Part shown: one piece after another, positions 2,000 through 51,318 of the stretch
How the letters are laid out: the number at the start of each line of letters is the position of its first letter
Position numbering within the stretch: position 1 is the first letter of the stretch
Source of the DNA: Escherichia phage vB_EcoM-RPN226
Reading direction: 5' to 3' (one strand)
Length of the DNA: 64,000 nucleotides
Sequence record: OL770073.2
Program-made: the position numbers and the translations under genes
The notes under the pieces: model-generated
Databases searched by the model: none
Seen by the model: the letters and a program-made list of their open reading frames with translations, nothing else
Told to the model about the DNA's origin: nothing

Positions 2000-3817
2000 A
2001 TGATTAAGAATGAAATTAAAATTCTGAGCGATATTGAACATATCAAAAAGCGTAGCGGCATGTATATTGGCTCTTCTGCTAATGAAATGCATGAGCGCTT
2101 TCTGTTTGGTAAATGGGAAAGTGTTCAGTATGTACCTGGTCTTGTTAAGCTTATTGATGAAATTATCGATAACTCAGTAGATGAAGGTATTCGTACTAAG
2201 TTTAAATTCGCAAATAAAATTAATGTTACTATCAAAAACAATCAAGTAACAGTTGAAGATAACGGTCGTGGTATTCCACAAGCGATGGTTAAAACACCTA
2301 CCGGTGAAGAAATTCCTGGTCCAGTTGCTGCATGGACTATTCCAAAAGCAGGTGGTAACTTTGGTGATGATAAAGAACGCGTCACTGGCGGTATGAACGG
2401 TGTTGGCTCTAGTTTAACTAACATTTTTTCTGTGATGTTTGTCGGTGAAACTGGCGACGGTCAAAATAATATTGTAGTTCGTTGTTCAAACGGCATGGAA
2501 AATAAATCGTGGGAAGATATTCCTGGAAAATGGAAAGGAACTCGCGTTACTTTCATTCCCGATTTTATGTCATTTGAAACTAATGAGCTATCTCAGGTTT
2601 ATCTTGACATTACACTAGATCGTCTCCAGACACTTGCAGTAGTTTATCCTGATATTCAATTTACCTTTAATGGTAAAAAGGTTCAGGGTAATTTTAAGAA
2701 ATACGCACGCCAATATGATGAGCATGCTATCGTTCAAGAACAAGAAAATTGTTCTATTGCGGTTGGTCGTTCACCGGATGGTTTTCGTCAATTAACATAC
2801 GTCAATAACATTCATACTAAGAATGGTGGCCACCACATTGACTGCGTTATGGATGATATTTGTGAAGACCTTATTCCACAAATCAAACGTAAATTTAAAA
2901 TTGACGTAACTAAAGCACGTGTTAAAGAATGTTTGACTATCGTTATGTTTGTTCGTGATATGAAAAACATGCGATTTGATTCTCAGACTAAAGAGCGTTT
3001 GACTTCTCCATTTGGTGAAATTCGTAGTCATATTCAGCTTGATGCTAAAAAGATTTCACGTGCTATTTTAAATAATGAAGCAATTTTAATGCCAATTATT
3101 GAAGCTGCTTTGGCTCGTAAATTGGCGGCAGAAAAAGCAGCAGAAACTAAAGCAGCTAAAAAGGCTTCTAAAGCTAAGGTTCATAAACATATTAAAGCGA
3201 ATCTTTGCGGTAAAGATGCTGATACTACTCTTTTCTTGACTGAGGGTGATTCGGCTATTGGATATCTTATTGATGTTCGTGATAAAGAACTTCATGGTGG
3301 TTATCCATTGCGTGGTAAAGTTCTTAACAGTTGGGGTATGTCATATGCTGATATGCTTAAAAACAAAGAACTGTTTGATATTTGCGCAATCACTGGATTG
3401 GTTCTTGGTGAAAAAGCCGAAAACTTGAATTATCATAATATTGCTATTATGACAGATGCTGACCATGATGGTCTAGGAAGCATTTATCCTTCTCTGCTCG
3501 GATTTTTTAGTAATTGGCCAGAACTGTTTGAACAAGGAAGAATTCGCTTTGTCAAAACTCCTGTAATCATCGCTCAGGTCGGTAAAAAACAAGAATGGTT
3601 TTATACAGTCGCTGAATATGAGAGTGCCAAAGATGCTCTACCTAAACATAGCATCCGTTATATTAAGGGACTTGGCTCTTTGGAAAAATCTGAATATCGT
3701 GAGATGATTCAAAATCCAGTATATGATGTTGTTAAACTTCCTGAGAATTGGAAAGAGCTTTTTGAAATGCTTATGGGAGATAATGCTGACCTTCGTAAAG
3801 AATGGATGAGCCAGTAG
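2000..3817 (+). CDS. 39: DNA topoisomerase II large subunit, single fused polypeptide (T4 gp39+gp60 equivalent)
   Basis: 605 aa, N-terminus MIKNEIKILSDIEHIKKRSGMYIGS (GyrB-like ATPase); continuous ORF with no bypass element. Confidence 0.9.
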   Translation: MIKNEIKILSDIEHIKKRSGMYIGSSANEMHERFLFGKWESVQYVPGLVKLIDEIIDNSVDEGIRTKFKFANKINVTIKNNQVTVEDNGRGIPQAMVKTPTGEEIPGPVAAWTIPKAGGNFGDDKERVTGGMNGVGSSLTNIFSVMFVGETGDGQNNIVVRCSNGMENKSWEDIPGKWKGTRVTFIPDFMSFETNELSQVYLDITLDRLQTLAVVYPDIQFTFNGKKVQGNFKKYARQYDEHAIVQEQENCSIAVGRSPDGFRQLTYVNNIHTKNGGHHIDCVMDDICEDLIPQIKRKFKIDVTKARVKECLTIVMFVRDMKNMRFDSQTKERLTSPFGEIRSHIQLDAKKISRAILNNEAILMPIIEAALARKLAAEKAAETKAAKKASKAKVHKHIKANLCGKDADTTLFLTEGDSAIGYLIDVRDKELHGGYPLRGKVLNSWGMSYADMLKNKELFDICAITGLVLGEKAENLNYHNIAIMTDADHDGLGSIYPSLLGFFSNWPELFEQGRIRFVKTPVIIAQVGKKQEWFYTVAEYESAKDALPKHSIRYIKGLGSLEKSEYREMIQNPVYDVVKLPENWKELFEMLMGDNADLRKEWMSQ

Positions 3818-38865: not shown

Positions 38866-38869
38866 GCTG

Positions 38870-38898
38870 TTTACAAGTCCCTCGTGTTGTGTTATAGT
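38870..38898 (+). promoter_or_regulatory. sigma70-type promoter within repeated cassette, copy 1
   Basis: TTTACA, 17-bp spacer, TATAGT; a 55-bp segment nearly identical to 50967-51021. Confidence 0.55.
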
Positions 38899-38926
38899 AG
38901 ACTTACTGACATAACATGAGGACTTT

Positions 38927-39433
38927 ATGATGGATTTACAGCTTATTACTACTGAAATGGTCGTTGAAGCATACGGTGATACCACGGATGGGATTTCTGT
39001 ATTTAAAGGAAATCGTCGAGTTGGATATATCACCGATCTTAAGAAAGATTTAGCTAAGCAAGTCAAGCGGAAAACGACCATTAAAGAATATCGAAATCGT
39101 CGTCTTGAGCAAGCCCGTGATATGCTTCCTGATGCGGTTGAAGAGATGAAAGTCTTTTTAGAAAATCAACTCGCTAAGTATGATTGTGAAGTATTCATTA
39201 ATCAGACTCAACCCAATGTTCATATCAATAGCTGCAAATGCTATATCATCGTTAATCCTTTAACGGGAAAACATCGTCTTGGAATTAGTAATCCAAATCG
39301 TAGCGCATCAGATATGGCAGAAGATGTTGAGACATGCTTTAAAATTTCTAAATCTCCAGCTGAACATCACATTTTAATTAACGGTCTTTCTCAAGACGAT
39401 ATTATAGAGGTTATTAAAACTTTATGCATGTAA
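38927..39433 (+). CDS. alc: probable Alc (blocks elongation on cytosine-containing DNA)
   Basis: 168 aa at the syntenic position after rnlA. Confidence 0.65.
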   Translation: MMDLQLITTEMVVEAYGDTTDGISVFKGNRRVGYITDLKKDLAKQVKRKTTIKEYRNRRLEQARDMLPDAVEEMKVFLENQLAKYDCEVFINQTQPNVHINSCKCYIIVNPLTGKHRLGISNPNRSASDMAEDVETCFKISKSPAEHHILINGLSQDDIIEVIKTLCM

Positions 39434-45679: not shown

Positions 45680-46548
45680 AGCCAACTATTTTAACTGATA
45701 TTGATGGAGTATGTTTAAGCTGGCAATCAGGCCTTCCTTATTTTGCTCAGAAATATAATCTTCCGTTAGAACATATTTTAAAAATGATCCAAGATGAGAA
45801 ATTTATTTCTCCAGGTAAACTCTTTAATTGTGATGAAGAACTTGGCGTCAAGTTAATTGAAAAATATAATCGATCAGATTTTATTCGTTACTTGTCTCCA
45901 TATAAAGATGCTCTGTGTGTAATTAACAAATTAAAAGAAGATTATAATTTTGTAGCTGTTACAGCACTGGGTGATTCTATTGACGCTCTGTTGAATCGTC
46001 AATTTAATTTGAATGCTCTTTTTCCTGGTGCCTTTTCAGAAGTACTGATGTGTGGTCATGATTCTTCAAAAGAAGAGTTGTTCAAAAAGGCAAAAGAGAA
46101 ATATAACGTAATTTGTTATATTGACGATCTCGCTCACCACTGCGATCACGCGAGTGAAATATTAAATGTTCCAGTTTATTGGATGGCTCGAGGAGAGCGT
46201 GACAGTATTCCAAAAACTGCACAGCGAGTTTATACATGGAATGATGTAGAAAATAAGCTTTTTTCGCCGAAGGAAAATAAAGAAAGTTTTGATAGTGAAA
46301 AAGCTATAAAAGATGTAATTGAGAAGATGGTTAAAAACGATTCTTTTCCTTGGAACACTACCTGGAGAACACCTGGATTTAATCCGTATAATCCATATTA
46401 TACACATCCATATAATCCATATAATCCATATTATACACACCCGTATCATATGAATCCATTCCATACGTGGAGTTATACTAAGCCTGGTGATGCAGGGTAT
46501 TTTAATAGATTTACTAGTGGTGATAATATTTTCCAAGGAGCATTCTAA
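45676..46548 (+). CDS. HAD-like hydrolase with C-terminal Tyr/Pro-rich repeat tail
   Basis: 290 aa; N-terminal DIDGV motif; C-terminal NPYNPYYTHPY repeats. Confidence 0.55.
   Translation: MKPTILTDIDGVCLSWQSGLPYFAQKYNLPLEHILKMIQDEKFISPGKLFNCDEELGVKLIEKYNRSDFIRYLSPYKDALCVINKLKEDYNFVAVTALGDSIDALLNRQFNLNALFPGAFSEVLMCGHDSSKEELFKKAKEKYNVICYIDDLAHHCDHASEILNVPVYWMARGERDSIPKTAQRVYTWNDVENKLFSPKENKESFDSEKAIKDVIEKMVKNDSFPWNTTWRTPGFNPYNPYYTHPYNPYNPYYTHPYHMNPFHTWSYTKPGDAGYFNRFTSGDNIFQGAF
46381..46446 (+). repeat. tandem 2 x 33-bp coding repeat built from AATCCATAT 9-mers
   Basis: AATCCGTATAATCCATATTATACACATCCATAT followed by AATCCATATAATCCATATTATACACACCCGTAT. Confidence 0.8.
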
Positions 46549-46814: not shown

Positions 46815-48275
46815 ATGATTCTTAAAATTCTGAATGAAATAGCATCTATTGGTTCAACTAAGCAGAAGCAAGCAATTCTTGAAAAGAATAAAGATAATGA
46901 ATTGCTTAAACGAGTATATCGTCTGACTTATTCTCGTGGGTTACAGTATTATATCAAGAAATGGCCTAAACCTGGTATTGCTACCCAGAGTTTTGGAATG
47001 TTGACTATTACCGATATGCTTGACTTCATTGAATTCACGTTAGCTACTCGGAAATTAACTGGCAATGCAGCAATTGAGGAATTAACTGGATATATCACCG
47101 ATGGTAAAAAGGATGATGTTGAAGTTTTGCGTCGAGTTATGATGCGAGACCTTGAATGCGGTGCTTCAGTATCTATTGCAAACAAAGTTTGGCCAGGTTT
47201 AATTCCTGAACAACCTCAAATGCTGGCAAGTTCTTATGATGAAAAAGGCATTAGTAAGAATATCAAGTTTCCAGCTTTTGCGCAGTTAAAAGCAGATGGA
47301 GCTCGGTGTTTTGCTGAAGTACGAGGCGATGAATTAGATGATGTTCGTCTTTTATCGCGAGCTGGTAATGAATATCTAGGATTAGATCTTCTTAAGGAAG
47401 AGTTAATCAAAATGACTGCTGAAGCCCGCCAGATTCATCCAGAAGGTGTGTTAATTGATGGTGAATTGGTATACCATGAGCAAGTTAAAAAGGAACCAGA
47501 AGGCCTAGATTTTCTTTTTGACACTCCTGAAATTAGCAAAGCTAAAGAATTCGCCGAAGTAGCGGAATCTCGTACTGCTTCTAATGGAATCGCCAATAAA
47601 TCCTTAAAAGGAACCATTTCCGAAAAAGAAGCCAAATGCATGAAGTTTCAGGTCTGGGATTATGTCCCGTTGGTAGAAATATACGGTCTTCCGGCGTTTC
47701 GTTTAAAATATGATGTACGTTTTTCTAAACTAGAACAAATGACATCAGGATATGATAAAGTAATTTTAATTGAAAACCAGGTAGTAAATAACCTAGATGA
47801 AGCTAAGGTAATTTATAAAAAGTATATTGACCAAGGTCTTGAAGGTATTATTCTCAAAAATACCGATGGATTGTGGGAAAATGCTCGTTCAAAAAATCTC
47901 TATAAATTTAAAGAAGTAATTGATGTTGATTTAAAAATTGTAGGAATTTATCCTCACCGTAAAGACCCTACTAAAGCAGGTGGATTTATTCTTGAATCAG
48001 AGTGCGGAAAAATTAAAGTAAATGCAGGTTCAGGCTTAAAAGATAAAGCCGGTGTAAAATCACATGAACTTGACCGTACTCGCATTATGGAAAACCAAAA
48101 TTATTATATTGGAAAAATTCTAGAGTGCGAATGCAATGGTTGGTTAAAATCTGATGGCCGCACTGATTACGTTAAATTATTTCTTCCAATTGCGATTCGT
48201 TTACGTGAAGATAAAACTAAAGCCAATACATTCGAGGATGTATTTGGTGATTTTCATGAGGTAACTGGTCTATGA
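46815..48275 (+). CDS. 30: ATP-dependent DNA ligase
   Basis: 486 aa; adenylation-site lysine motif FAQLKADGARC. Confidence 0.9.
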   Translation: MILKILNEIASIGSTKQKQAILEKNKDNELLKRVYRLTYSRGLQYYIKKWPKPGIATQSFGMLTITDMLDFIEFTLATRKLTGNAAIEELTGYITDGKKDDVEVLRRVMMRDLECGASVSIANKVWPGLIPEQPQMLASSYDEKGISKNIKFPAFAQLKADGARCFAEVRGDELDDVRLLSRAGNEYLGLDLLKEELIKMTAEARQIHPEGVLIDGELVYHEQVKKEPEGLDFLFDTPEISKAKEFAEVAESRTASNGIANKSLKGTISEKEAKCMKFQVWDYVPLVEIYGLPAFRLKYDVRFSKLEQMTSGYDKVILIENQVVNNLDEAKVIYKKYIDQGLEGIILKNTDGLWENARSKNLYKFKEVIDVDLKIVGIYPHRKDPTKAGGFILESECGKIKVNAGSGLKDKAGVKSHELDRTRIMENQNYYIGKILECECNGWLKSDGRTDYVKLFLPIAIRLREDKTKANTFEDVFGDFHEVTGL

Positions 48276-48480: not shown

Positions 48481-48512
48481 TTATAAATAGAATAAACACT
48501 AGAGAGGATATG

Positions 48513-50606
48513 ATGGAACTTATTACAGAATTATTTGACGAAGATACTACTCTTCCGATTACAAACTTAAATCCAAAGAAGAAAATACCGCAAATTTTTT
48601 CAGTTCATGTTGATGACGCAATTGAACAACCAGGCTTTCGTTTATGTACCTATACATCTGGAGGTGATACTAATCGCGATTTAAAAATGGGCGATAAAAT
48701 GATGCATATTGTTCCTTTTACATTAACTGCTAAAGGTTCAATTGCTAAATTAAAAGGTCTCGGTCCAAGCCCAATTAATTATATCAATTCAGTTTTTACT
48801 GTTGCAATGCAGACGATGCGTCAGTATAAAATTGATGCCTGTATGCTCCGTATTCTTAAGTCTAAAACTGCTGGTCAAGCTCGACAAATTCAAGTTATTG
48901 CTGATAGACTTATCCGTAGTCGTTCAGGTGGCAGATACGTCCTTCTTAAGGAACTCTGGGATTATGATAAAAAGTATGCATATATTCTTATACATCGCAA
49001 AAATGTATCACTAGAAGACATTCCAGGAGTTCCGGAAATTAGTACCGAGCTCTTTACTAAAGTTGAATCGAAAGTCGGCGATGTTTATATCAATAAAGAT
49101 ACTGGAGCTCAAGTAACTAAAAATGAGGCAATTGCTGCATCTATTGCGCAAGAAAATGATAAACGTTCTGACCAAGCTGTAATCGTTAAAGTTAAAATTT
49201 CCCGTAGAGCAATTGCGCAAAGTCAGTCATTGGAATCTTCTAGATTTGAAAGCGAATTATTCCAGAAGTATGAATCTACCGCAGCTAATTTCAATAAACC
49301 TGCTACCGCTCCTTTAATTCCCGAAGCAGAAGAAATGAAGCTTGGAATTAATTCATTAGCTTCTAAAACTAAAGCAGCAAAAATTATTGCCGAAGGAACT
49401 GCAGATGAACTTCACTATGATTATAAATTCTTTTCAAAAAGTGAGGTTAATGAAGTTTCTGAAAAAATTAAAGATGTAATTCTTAATGCGATTAAAAATG
49501 AACCGACTACTTCAATAAAATGTTTAGAGAAATACGCAGCAGCTGTTAATCAATTATTTGAAGAATATAAAGATAATTGGCTTGATAAACATAATAAAAC
49601 CCGTAAAGGACAGCCAGATGAAGTCTGGGAAGAAATGACTAAAAATTCCTGGAACGCAGCAAAAACTAAATTCCTCAAAAGAATGATTTACAGCTTTTCT
49701 GGAATTGGTGCAGGTCCAATGATTGATATTACTATTGCCCGTGATGGTTCTAAATATACTCCATCACAAAAGCGTGGCATTAGAGAGTATTGTGGTTCAG
49801 GATATACTGACATCAATAATCTTCTTTTGGGTCGTTACAATCCAGAACGATATGATGTAATGAGTGAAAAAGAAATTGAATCTGCGATAAATAATTTAGA
49901 TTCAGCCTTTGAAAATGGTGACCGTATACCAGAAGGCATTACAGTTTATCGCGCTCAAAGCATGACTGCTCCTATATACGAAGCACTAGTTAAAAATAAA
50001 GTGTTCTATTTCAGAAATTTTGTATCTACTTCTTTAACTCCTATCATTTTTGGACGTTTTGGAATTACGCATGCTGGTATTGGTCTTTTAGAACCAGAAG
50101 CTCGTAATGAATTGACAGTTGATAAAAATGAAGAAGGAATAACTATTAATCCAAGCGAAATAAGAGCGTATAAAGAAAATCCTGAATACGTTAAAGTTCA
50201 AATAGGATGGGCAATTGATGGAGCTCATAAAGTTAATGTTGTATATCCAGGAAATCTCGGAATAGCAACAGAAGCTGAAGTTATTCTACCACGCGGATTG
50301 ATGGTCAAAGTTAATAAAATAACTGATGCTTCTAATAATGACGGAACAACATCTAATAATACAAAACTCATTCAAGCTGAAGTTATGACCACGGAAGAAC
50401 TCACCGAATCAGTCATTTATGACGGTGACCGTCTAATGGAAACCGGTGAAGTAGTTGCAATGACAGATGATATTGAAATAGAAGACAGAGTTGACTTTGC
50501 ATCATTTGTTTCATCAAATGCTAAACAAAAAGTAGAATCATCTCTTGGAATTATTGCGTCTTGCATAGATATTGCAAATATGCCTTACAAGTTCGTTCAA
50601 GGATAA
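48513..50606 (+). CDS. alt: ADP-ribosyltransferase Alt (packaged, modifies host RNA polymerase)
   Basis: 697 aa from MELITELFDEDTTLPITNLNPKKKIPQIFSVHVDD... Confidence 0.85.
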   Translation: MELITELFDEDTTLPITNLNPKKKIPQIFSVHVDDAIEQPGFRLCTYTSGGDTNRDLKMGDKMMHIVPFTLTAKGSIAKLKGLGPSPINYINSVFTVAMQTMRQYKIDACMLRILKSKTAGQARQIQVIADRLIRSRSGGRYVLLKELWDYDKKYAYILIHRKNVSLEDIPGVPEISTELFTKVESKVGDVYINKDTGAQVTKNEAIAASIAQENDKRSDQAVIVKVKISRRAIAQSQSLESSRFESELFQKYESTAANFNKPATAPLIPEAEEMKLGINSLASKTKAAKIIAEGTADELHYDYKFFSKSEVNEVSEKIKDVILNAIKNEPTTSIKCLEKYAAAVNQLFEEYKDNWLDKHNKTRKGQPDEVWEEMTKNSWNAAKTKFLKRMIYSFSGIGAGPMIDITIARDGSKYTPSQKRGIREYCGSGYTDINNLLLGRYNPERYDVMSEKEIESAINNLDSAFENGDRIPEGITVYRAQSMTAPIYEALVKNKVFYFRNFVSTSLTPIIFGRFGITHAGIGLLEPEARNELTVDKNEEGITINPSEIRAYKENPEYVKVQIGWAIDGAHKVNVVYPGNLGIATEAEVILPRGLMVKVNKITDASNNDGTTSNNTKLIQAEVMTTEELTESVIYDGDRLMETGEVVAMTDDIEIEDRVDFASFVSSNAKQKVESSLGIIASCIDIANMPYKFVQG

Positions 50607-50609
50607 ATC

Positions 50610-50795
50610 ATGGAACTTATTACAGAATTATTTGACGGCGCTTCGGCGCCGGTTGTTAACTTAAATCCTAAGCATAAAATACCACAAATTTTTGCTATTC
50701 AAGCCGGCGAAGAAAGCGTGCTTCCTAGATTTAGATTTTGTACATACACCTCTGGCGGTGATACGAATAAAACGTTAAGCCGGGCGATAAAATGA
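50610..50795 (+). pseudogene. alt N-terminal paralog fragment, part 1
   Basis: MELITELFDGASAPVVNLNPKHKIPQIFAIQAGEE... parallels Alt residues 1-60; ends at a TGA created by a 1-nt length difference relative to alt. Confidence 0.6.
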
Positions 50796-50995
50796 TGCAT
50801 ATCGTAATGATAGGTGTTAATGAGAAACTATCATTAGTTAAGCTTAAAAACTTGGGTGGAAATCCAATTGGTGTCATTAATGCTGTTTTTGATGCTGCTC
50901 TTCAAACAATGAAACAGTATAAAATCGACGCATGCCTATTACGCGTACTAAAAAGTTCAAAATGTAGTTTACAAGTCCCTCGTGTTGTGTTATAG
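50792..50995 (+). pseudogene. alt N-terminal paralog fragment, part 2
   Basis: MMHIVMIGVNEKLSLVKLKNLGGNPIGVINAVFDAALQTMKQYKIDACLLRVLKS parallels Alt residues ~64-120; ATGA overlap with part 1. Confidence 0.6.
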
Positions 50996-50996
50996 T
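50968..50996 (+). promoter_or_regulatory. sigma70-type promoter within repeated cassette, copy 2
   Basis: TTTACA, 17-bp spacer, TATAGT; near-identical to 38869-38923. Confidence 0.55.
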
Positions 50997-51027
50997 AGTC
51001 TTACTGACATAACACGAGGAACACAAA

Positions 51028-51318
51028 ATGAAATCTTCTTTACGCTTTTTAGGTCAAGAACTTGTAGTTGAAGGCGTTATTCCTGCTGATAATGCTTTTA
51101 ATGAAGCAGTTTATGATGAATTTATCAAAATTTTCGGAACAGATAAAAAGTTTGGAATTTTTCCTTCTGAAAATTTTTCAAAGCCAGAACAGACTGAAAG
51201 TATTTTTCAGGGTGTAGTAACAGGTAAATTTGAGTCAGAAGCTCCGGTAAAAATTGAAGTTTATATTGAAGACAGTTTAGTTGCTTCAGTTGCTGCTTTC
51301 ATTTCATTCCGTAAATAA
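51028..51318 (+). CDS. hypothetical protein
   Basis: 96-aa ORF with GAGGA RBS downstream of cassette copy 2. Confidence 0.5.
   Translation: MKSSLRFLGQELVVEGVIPADNAFNEAVYDEFIKIFGTDKKFGIFPSENFSKPEQTESIFQGVVTGKFESEAPVKIEVYIEDSLVASVAAFISFRK

Follow-up and report, generated by a model that had tools for sequence, protein, structure and literature searches.

Are the two small overlapping reading frames that follow the ADP-ribosyltransferase gene alt in Escherichia phage vB_EcoM-RPN226 (sequence record OL770073.2) genes in their own right, or are they what is left of one? The window, by which we mean the whole 64,000-nt stretch of DNA that was analysed, is from a T4-like (Tequatrovirus) phage genome, in the orientation opposite to that of the T4 reference. 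From comparisons of sequences, we consider it very probable that positions 50610-50967 have no function of their own and are the remnant of a gene that was truncated recently and is decaying neutrally as a pseudogene. The truncated gene is the one that we name alt2, a second full-length alt-type gene of 685 aa, which is intact in relatives of this phage.

The window has the DNA ligase gene (46815-48275), alt.1, alt (48513-50606), the two small ORFs, alt.-3, and then gp54 and gp48 on the other strand. This matches the order 30, alt.1, alt, alt.-1, alt.-2, alt.-3, 54, 48 of the T4 annotation, in which alt.-1 and alt.-2 also lie between alt and alt.-3 on the same strand. We use the T4 names for the window ORFs. 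Upstream of the ligase gene, the window also includes a 33-nt tandem direct repeat, 85% identical (ACACCTGGATTTAATCCGTATAATCCATATTAT, 46369-46434). The features at the locus are:

48513..50606, plus strand: alt, the ADP-ribosyltransferase gene, 697 aa from MELIT (ORF list; Pfam PF03496, E 2.6e-37), with an additional in-frame ATG at 48510
50607..50637, plus strand: a 31-nt block with the start codon and MELITELFD, 97% identical to 48510-48540
50610..50795, plus strand: the alt.-1 ORF, 61 aa; alt2 codons 1-54, then 7 out-of-frame codons and TGA
50792..50795, plus strand: the ATGA overlap of alt.-2 start (ATG 50792-94) and alt.-1 stop (TGA 50793-95)
50792..50995, plus strand: the alt.-2 ORF, 67 aa; alt2 codons 62-117, then 12 out-of-frame codons that cross the old alt2 3' end and enter a promoter
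51028..51318, plus strand: alt.-3, 96 aa, DUF5498 (Pfam E 1.4e-64), the intact downstream gene

Similarity of the remnant to alt

The 5' region of alt (from 48513) and the copy (from 50610) give a good nucleotide alignment to about column 355, with gaps of 3 nt, in frame after codon 9, and of 1 nt, near GATACGAAT-AAAACG. By blastn, the similarity is significant: 72% over 200 nt, with E 6.6e-27 in the pairwise comparison and 1.1e-24 against the whole window, and a further 59 nt at 71%. The first-pass annotation had described a repeat of the first ~120 codons of alt, one nucleotide shorter than alt and split by a TGA into two ORFs, of 61 and 67 aa, with an ATGA overlap. We locate both ORFs, and the alignment places the missing base, which is one A of an A5 run. 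The repeat is as described but its length is less, since 50610-50956 repeats alt codons 1 to ~116 and the homology, of 116-117 codons, ends at 50956. The copy had also been said to end in a promoter cassette. The alt.-2 stop does lie inside that cassette (TAG 50993-95), within the -10 hexamer TATAGT (50991-96), but 50957-50967, taken for cassette, belong to the lost paralog, as its final 11 nt.

The remnant spans only residues 1-117 of the 685-aa paralog. In a Pfam scan, alt.-1, alt.-2 and their fusion have no match, and the ART catalytic domain is absent from all three; PF26846, a precomputed family given for database proteins, has no match in the local Pfam scan. The remnant is homologous to the N-terminal region of Alt, and it does keep MELITELFD, which includes the ITE-6 prohead-protease cleavage motif. 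T4 Alt is processed at ITE-6, and its C-terminal LTE site is also cleaved by the prohead protease (PMC5694885). The first 27 coding nucleotides, those of MELITELFD, are identical in alt and in the alt2 remnant, while the paralogs are only about 72% identical elsewhere. This identity suggests either gene conversion or constraint on the translation-initiation region and the propeptide.

Structure prediction says little about where the N-terminal domain ends: the AlphaFold2 model of Alt residues 1-238, made from a 6-sequence alignment, has a mean pLDDT of 50 and a pTM of 0.35, too poor to place a domain boundary at residue 117. For the N-terminal region of Alt we found no solved structure; the matches to binary-toxin components are confined to the ART domain and are weak. 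Matches in the protein database are few, three for the repaired 128-aa fusion of alt.-1 and alt.-2 and five for Alt residues 1-238, and they include P0001, the 92-aa ORF of phage SG1. Relatives were found mainly by tblastn and megablast against phage genomes. A tblastn search for a second alt2 copy elsewhere in the window found none.

The intact paralog and the deletion junction

With the repaired fusion protein as the tblastn query, uninterrupted matches led us to intact loci. In Yersinia phage ZN18 (L004), alt (698 aa) is followed 3 bases later by a 685-aa ORF and then by alt.-3. The first 116 aa of this alt2 and the repaired window copy share 97% identity, TNKNVKPGDKMMH included, and in tblastn the match of the window remnant to residues 1-116 of an intact paralog in a relative is at 95-97%. 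The alt2 coordinates are 3501-5558 in L004 and 402-2459 in L020-L026. The alt gene of the window is not the parent of the remnant but a diverged paralog of that parent, with 41% amino-acid identity over the full length to the ZN18 alt2 and the best conservation in the N-terminal ~240 residues. The alt2 protein has the ART domain PF03496 (E 2e-20), and its motifs YRGQ, FVSTSL and EAEVILPRG correspond to YRAQ, FVSTSL and EAEVILPRG in Alt. Its N-terminus also reads MELITE, and in the alignment an L-x-E site stands opposite the C-terminal LTE site of T4 Alt.

By megablast, the alt2-specific middle part of the gene has matches at 90-100% identity in 407 phage records, and in 402 of these the match covers 80% or more of the query. 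Intact alt2 is carried by T2, T6, RB27, RB51, Shigella phage pSs-1, UFV-AREG1 and ZN18; the gene is labelled alt.-2 in RB27, RB51, T2 and T6, and its product is annotated 'Alt-like RNA polymerase ADP-ribosyltransferase'. The contiguous truncated layout (alt 3' end, remnant, alt.-3) appears in 90 records, T4 among them. With ~400 intact against 90 truncated records, intact alt2 is the majority state in the genus, and T4 and the window are in the minority. In the literature that we searched, we found no study of intact alt2.

The number of alt-like genes also differs in other phages. Yersinia phage PST (NC_027404) has a single alt-like place (63% identity in tblastn with the repaired fusion), and from its sequence seems to have neither alt2 nor a remnant. 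The more distant T4-like Escherichia phages 04086, UGJNEcP4 and AnYang each have three alt-like places per genome, and therefore multi-copy alt arrays seem common in the subfamily. In a close relative, Escherichia phage vB_EcoM_G2540-3, alt is annotated as two CDSs (1095-2825 and 2875-3201 in the fetched locus, L002), which suggests that its primary alt gene is disrupted.

Comparing truncated with intact loci gives three further features of the window:

50769..50772, plus strand: an A4 run, the frameshift site; intact alt2 and 6/18 truncated copies have A5 (AATAAAAACG)
50948..50956, plus strand: the deletion junction, a single 9-bp repeat CTAAAAAGT
50957..50967, plus strand: TCAAAATGTAG, the 11 nt that end alt2 (…F K M stop), out of frame, with the old stop TAG at 50965-67

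Intact alt2 carries CTAAAAAGT at two sites 1,699 bp apart, one at nt 340-348 (codons L-K-S 114-116), the other at nt 2039-2047. Both copies are exact in 7 of the 9 intact genes, and the other two have CTAAAGAGT at the left site. The window lacks alt2 codons 118-681. All 12 truncated copies of our first sample have one CTAAAAAGT followed directly by TCAAAATGTAG; the six copies added later show no gap at the junction, except for F25, in which one A is lost inside the repeat. The truncated copies have this one junction in common and therefore go back to one deletion event. Because 1,699 is 3n+1, the old stop at 50965-67 is out of frame, and reading continues to the TAG at 50993-95. At the nucleotide level, the remnant is 95.0-98.2% identical to the 5' ends of intact alt2 genes, no more distant than these are from one another (mean identity 96.6%). 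A copy that is 95-98% identical to alt2 but 72% identical to alt therefore points to an old duplication and a recent truncation.

The history that we propose is as follows. The ancestor would have carried in tandem a full-length alt and a diverged alt2, both with the ITE-6 motif and the ART domain. In one lineage, alt2 would have lost 1,699 bp by deletion between its 9-bp CTAAAAAGT repeats, which would have fused codons 1-117, in the wrong frame, to the final 11 nt of the gene. The resulting 128-codon ORF, ended beyond the old stop by the TAG inside the -10 box of the alt.-3 promoter, would be the form still kept in a few phages. On the branch with T4 and the window, an A would have been lost from the A5 run afterwards, creating the TGA, and the 61-aa and 67-aa ORFs would be by-products.

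Lesions, constraint and expression of the remnant

At the frameshift site, intact genes read AAT AAA AAC GTT and the window reads AATAAAACGTT, one A short of A5. The lost A brings a TGA in frame within the inherited ...GAT AAA ATG ATG CAT.... The alt.-2 ATG belongs to the inherited Met-Met codon pair of ...GDKMMHIV..., and because these codons supply it, the ATGA overlap is an accident of the parent sequence. The overlap had been proposed as a termination-reinitiation signal; it is present, but we do not take it as a signal, given that the Met-Met pair is inherited and the arrangement is not conserved in relatives.

We surveyed the lesions in 18 fetched truncated copies. The A4 run is the only lesion in 8 of them (the window, T4, G2540-3, G8, Lv5cm, Pu-Krd-SF3, SP1 and one IMG/VR contig). 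Three (SG1, fPS-2 and FL12) have only a GAA to TAA stop at codon 6, and another three (F26, GRNsp7 and T-01) have both the A4 run and the codon-6 stop. F25 (1/18) combines A4 with a second 1-nt deletion, at the junction. The remaining 3/18 (N2, AV121 and FL23) have no further lesion and keep the 128-codon ORF open. All four combinations of A4 and the codon-6 stop are thus seen, therefore recombination or recurrent mutation has been at work. Among the best 60 tblastn matches, 17 are unshifted, 42 shifted and one doubly shifted.

To measure constraint, we took the alt2 reading frame and counted the substitutions found in one group only, as non-synonymous (N) to synonymous (S). In the first sample (12 truncated and 9 intact copies; codons 1-116), remnants have N12:S5 and intact genes N2:S21 (Fisher p 1.05e-4). 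In the larger sample (18 truncated and 9 intact; codons 1-113), the counts are N14:S9 and N1:S10 (Fisher p 0.008); both samples are small, and the sequences are related and recombining, so that the substitutions are not fully independent. Both parts of the remnant in the larger sample have the non-synonymous excess, N9:S6 in the alt.-1 part and N5:S3 in the alt.-2 part, against N1:S10 for intact genes. Under a naive neutral expectation (265 non-synonymous to 74 synonymous sites), remnants do not depart significantly (binomial p 0.07, with N:S somewhat below expectation), and intact genes do (p 2e-6). The remnant may have weak residual constraint, and the 5' part of intact alt2 is, judging by these counts, under strong purifying selection. 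We chose alt.-3 as the control; the last 100 codons of alt were unsuitable owing to allele indels and misalignment. alt.-3 is intact in 21/21 phages with S24:N7, which differs from the remnant (Fisher p 0.002). The private amino-acid changes of the window copy are G40R and T96A.

We found no terminator-like site on the plus strand between alt and the cassette, so transcripts from alt probably read through into the remnant, and the inherited ribosome-binding site may serve for translation of alt.-1. The entries for these genes in the T4 time course of Wolfram-Schauerte et al. (2022) class the RNA of alt.-1 and alt.-2 as 'middle', and that of alt.-3, like its protein, as early. In the protein data given there for Alt.-1 (P39495), the LFQ intensity is 0 in 24/24 samples, while the same study clearly detects its neighbours Alt.-3 and Alt.1. 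Shotgun proteomics easily misses small proteins, so that the zero values count only weakly against a product.

We read 50610-50967 as an alt2 pseudogene because an intact homolog stands at the orthologous position, the lesions differ by lineage, and constraint is relaxed relative to the intact gene. The evidence supports the option of the first-pass annotation that this is a decaying pseudogene from a tandem duplication of the ADP-ribosyltransferase gene. We infer that the products of the remnant are not maintained by selection. Two facts sit less easily with a pseudogene: the uninterrupted 128-codon ORF with its ribosome-binding site in N2, AV121 and FL23, and the survival of the remnant, not deleted outright, in about 90 phage records.

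The first-pass annotation had offered a second option, small N-terminal-domain proteins that are retained. Here Alt.-1 and Alt.-2 would be functional N-terminal pieces of an Alt-type protein with the ITE-6 propeptide, packaged in heads or modulating the packaging of Alt, with Alt.-2 made by termination-reinitiation at ATGA. We consider this unlikely. alt.-1 does keep the alt2 start codon, the AAGGA ribosome-binding site and the 27 nt of MELITELFD as in alt; the ATGA overlap is compatible with translational coupling; three sampled phages have the open 128-codon ORF; and the RNA is present in T4. But the ORF structure is not conserved, being interrupted by the codon-6 stop, the frameshift, both, or an extra deletion, and non-synonymous changes are in excess in both parts. 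Alt.-1 is undetected in the T4 proteomics data cited above, and the ATG ATG is just the inherited Met-Met. We give an equally small chance to a more specific proposal, in which the 128-aa form or the 61-aa Alt.-1 competes or is co-packaged with Alt. A remnant product with the MELITE propeptide and an N-terminal piece of a head-packaged enzyme, abundant from the inherited ribosome-binding site, would then tune the amount of injected ADP-ribosyltransferase.

It is very unlikely that only the first part of alt was ever duplicated. The T4 RefSeq note, taken literally, says so: it traces alt.-1 and alt.-2 together to an old duplication of the beginning of alt that acquired a stop codon and a new start. 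Seen in T4 or the window alone, only about 350 nt are alt-like, and the first-pass annotation also had a partial duplicate of the alt 5' region. The 11 nt after the junction are, however, the 3' end and stop of alt2, the 9-bp repeat flanks exactly the missing segment, and intact alt2 stands between the same neighbours in about 400 records, with the remnant far closer to alt2 than to alt. What the window holds is rather left over from a paralog that was complete (685 aa) before an internal deletion took out 1,699 bp. Programmed recoding, in which a single 128-aa product would arise through a -1 ribosomal frameshift or through transcriptional slippage on the A run, can practically be set aside: the frames do overlap by about 25 nt and the lesion is in a short A run, but an X XXY YYZ slippery heptamer is absent, A4 is far shorter than the runs known for polymerase slippage, and relatives encode the same protein without a shift or, in 6/18 sampled truncated copies, have the codon-6 stop, so that the arrangement is not conserved.

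On the pseudogene reading, the "hypothetical proteins" alt.-1 and alt.-2, sometimes annotated "ADP-ribosyltransferase" in T4-like genomes, would best be treated as one pseudogene, and their origin corrected from a partial duplication to an internal deletion of a complete paralog. T4 is atypical in its genus, without the second, strongly conserved Alt-type enzyme that about 80% of its sequenced relatives carry, including T2 and T6, which calls for caution in extending T4's "three ADP-ribosyltransferases" to the T-even phages. As a discovery, the pseudogene has little weight, since the T4 annotation, a comparative paper of 2006 and one phage record precede it.

The downstream cassette and comparison with known systems

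The remnant runs into a promoter-hairpin cassette that occurs at two places in the window:

38869..38922, plus strand: cassette copy 1, upstream of a 168-aa ORF at 38927 that we take to be alc
50967..51020, plus strand: cassette copy 2, which contains the alt.-3 promoter
50968..50996, plus strand: the early-type promoter of alt.-3, TTTACA-17-nt-TATAGT with TG, the best promoter-like site in the region
50975..51022, plus strand: the cassette hairpin, with a fold of -24.8 kcal/mol (z -4.1)

By direct reading, the two copies match at 52/54 positions; a 30-nt core of the cassette is found exactly at 38869-38898, where the number expected by chance is 0. The 3' arm of the hairpin holds the Shine-Dalgarno GAGG of the downstream gene (51016-19 for alt.-3, and likewise for the presumed alc). 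At one pair of the stem, phages differ between G-C, G.U and A-U. The transcription start of the cassette, at about 51003, would fall in the hairpin loop; read-through RNA would therefore hide the Shine-Dalgarno sequence, and promoter-proximal RNA would expose it. The T4 genes e, soc and 49 follow the same logic of hiding the Shine-Dalgarno sequence.

The cassette resembles the PeSL (promoter-early stem-loop) of T4-type phages (Arbiol 2010; Comeau 2014), which likewise joins an early promoter, a stem-loop, and a Shine-Dalgarno sequence with start codon; here it is a unit of ~55 nt, at two places of the window, before small early genes. The stem-loop of published PeSLs is placed immediately upstream of the promoter (PMC4122927), whereas the hairpin here overlaps and follows the promoter and sequesters the Shine-Dalgarno sequence. 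No T run follows the window hairpin (50975-51022), and it does not have the terminator-promoter order of a PeSL. We also considered a PeSL-mediated truncation of alt2 and rejected it, as the junction at 50948-56 is inside alt2, 11 nt before the old stop. The cassette also lies 3' of the intact alt2 genes of T2, T6 and other phages; with that, and with the junction inside the coding sequence, it has no role in the truncation and is simply the promoter of alt.-3. The deletion itself is of a known kind, with short direct repeats at its ends (Albertini et al. 1982, cited in PMC4122927); it has an exact 9-bp repeat of which one copy is left, and we find no difference from this textbook pattern.

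The alt2 of T2, T6, RB27, RB51 and ZN18 shares with the window the locus, the neighbours, the downstream cassette and the first 116 codons (95-98% identical in nucleotides). It differs in being intact and having the ART domain, which the window remnant lacks. The closest system is T4 alt.-1 (T4p199, 61 aa, P39495) and alt.-2 (T4p198, 67 aa, P39494), with the same position, lengths, ATGA, junction and A4 as in the window. The first-pass annotation had pointed to these two genes for comparison, and they are orthologs with the same ORF lengths, the window and T4 remnants being 97.1% identical over 339 nt. Their relation to alt is already known in outline. Nolan et al. (2006) list T4 alt.-1 and alt.-2 among the paralogous duplications of adjacent genes, as derived from alt, and report a full-length alt duplicate in phage 44RR (PMC1524935). 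The record of Yersinia phage fPS-2 labels its copy 'similar to N-terminal of ... Alt; putative pseudogene'. The published T4 notes have a partial duplication and we have the deletion remnant of a full-length paralog; the origin from an intact paralog, and the deletion, are among the points added here.
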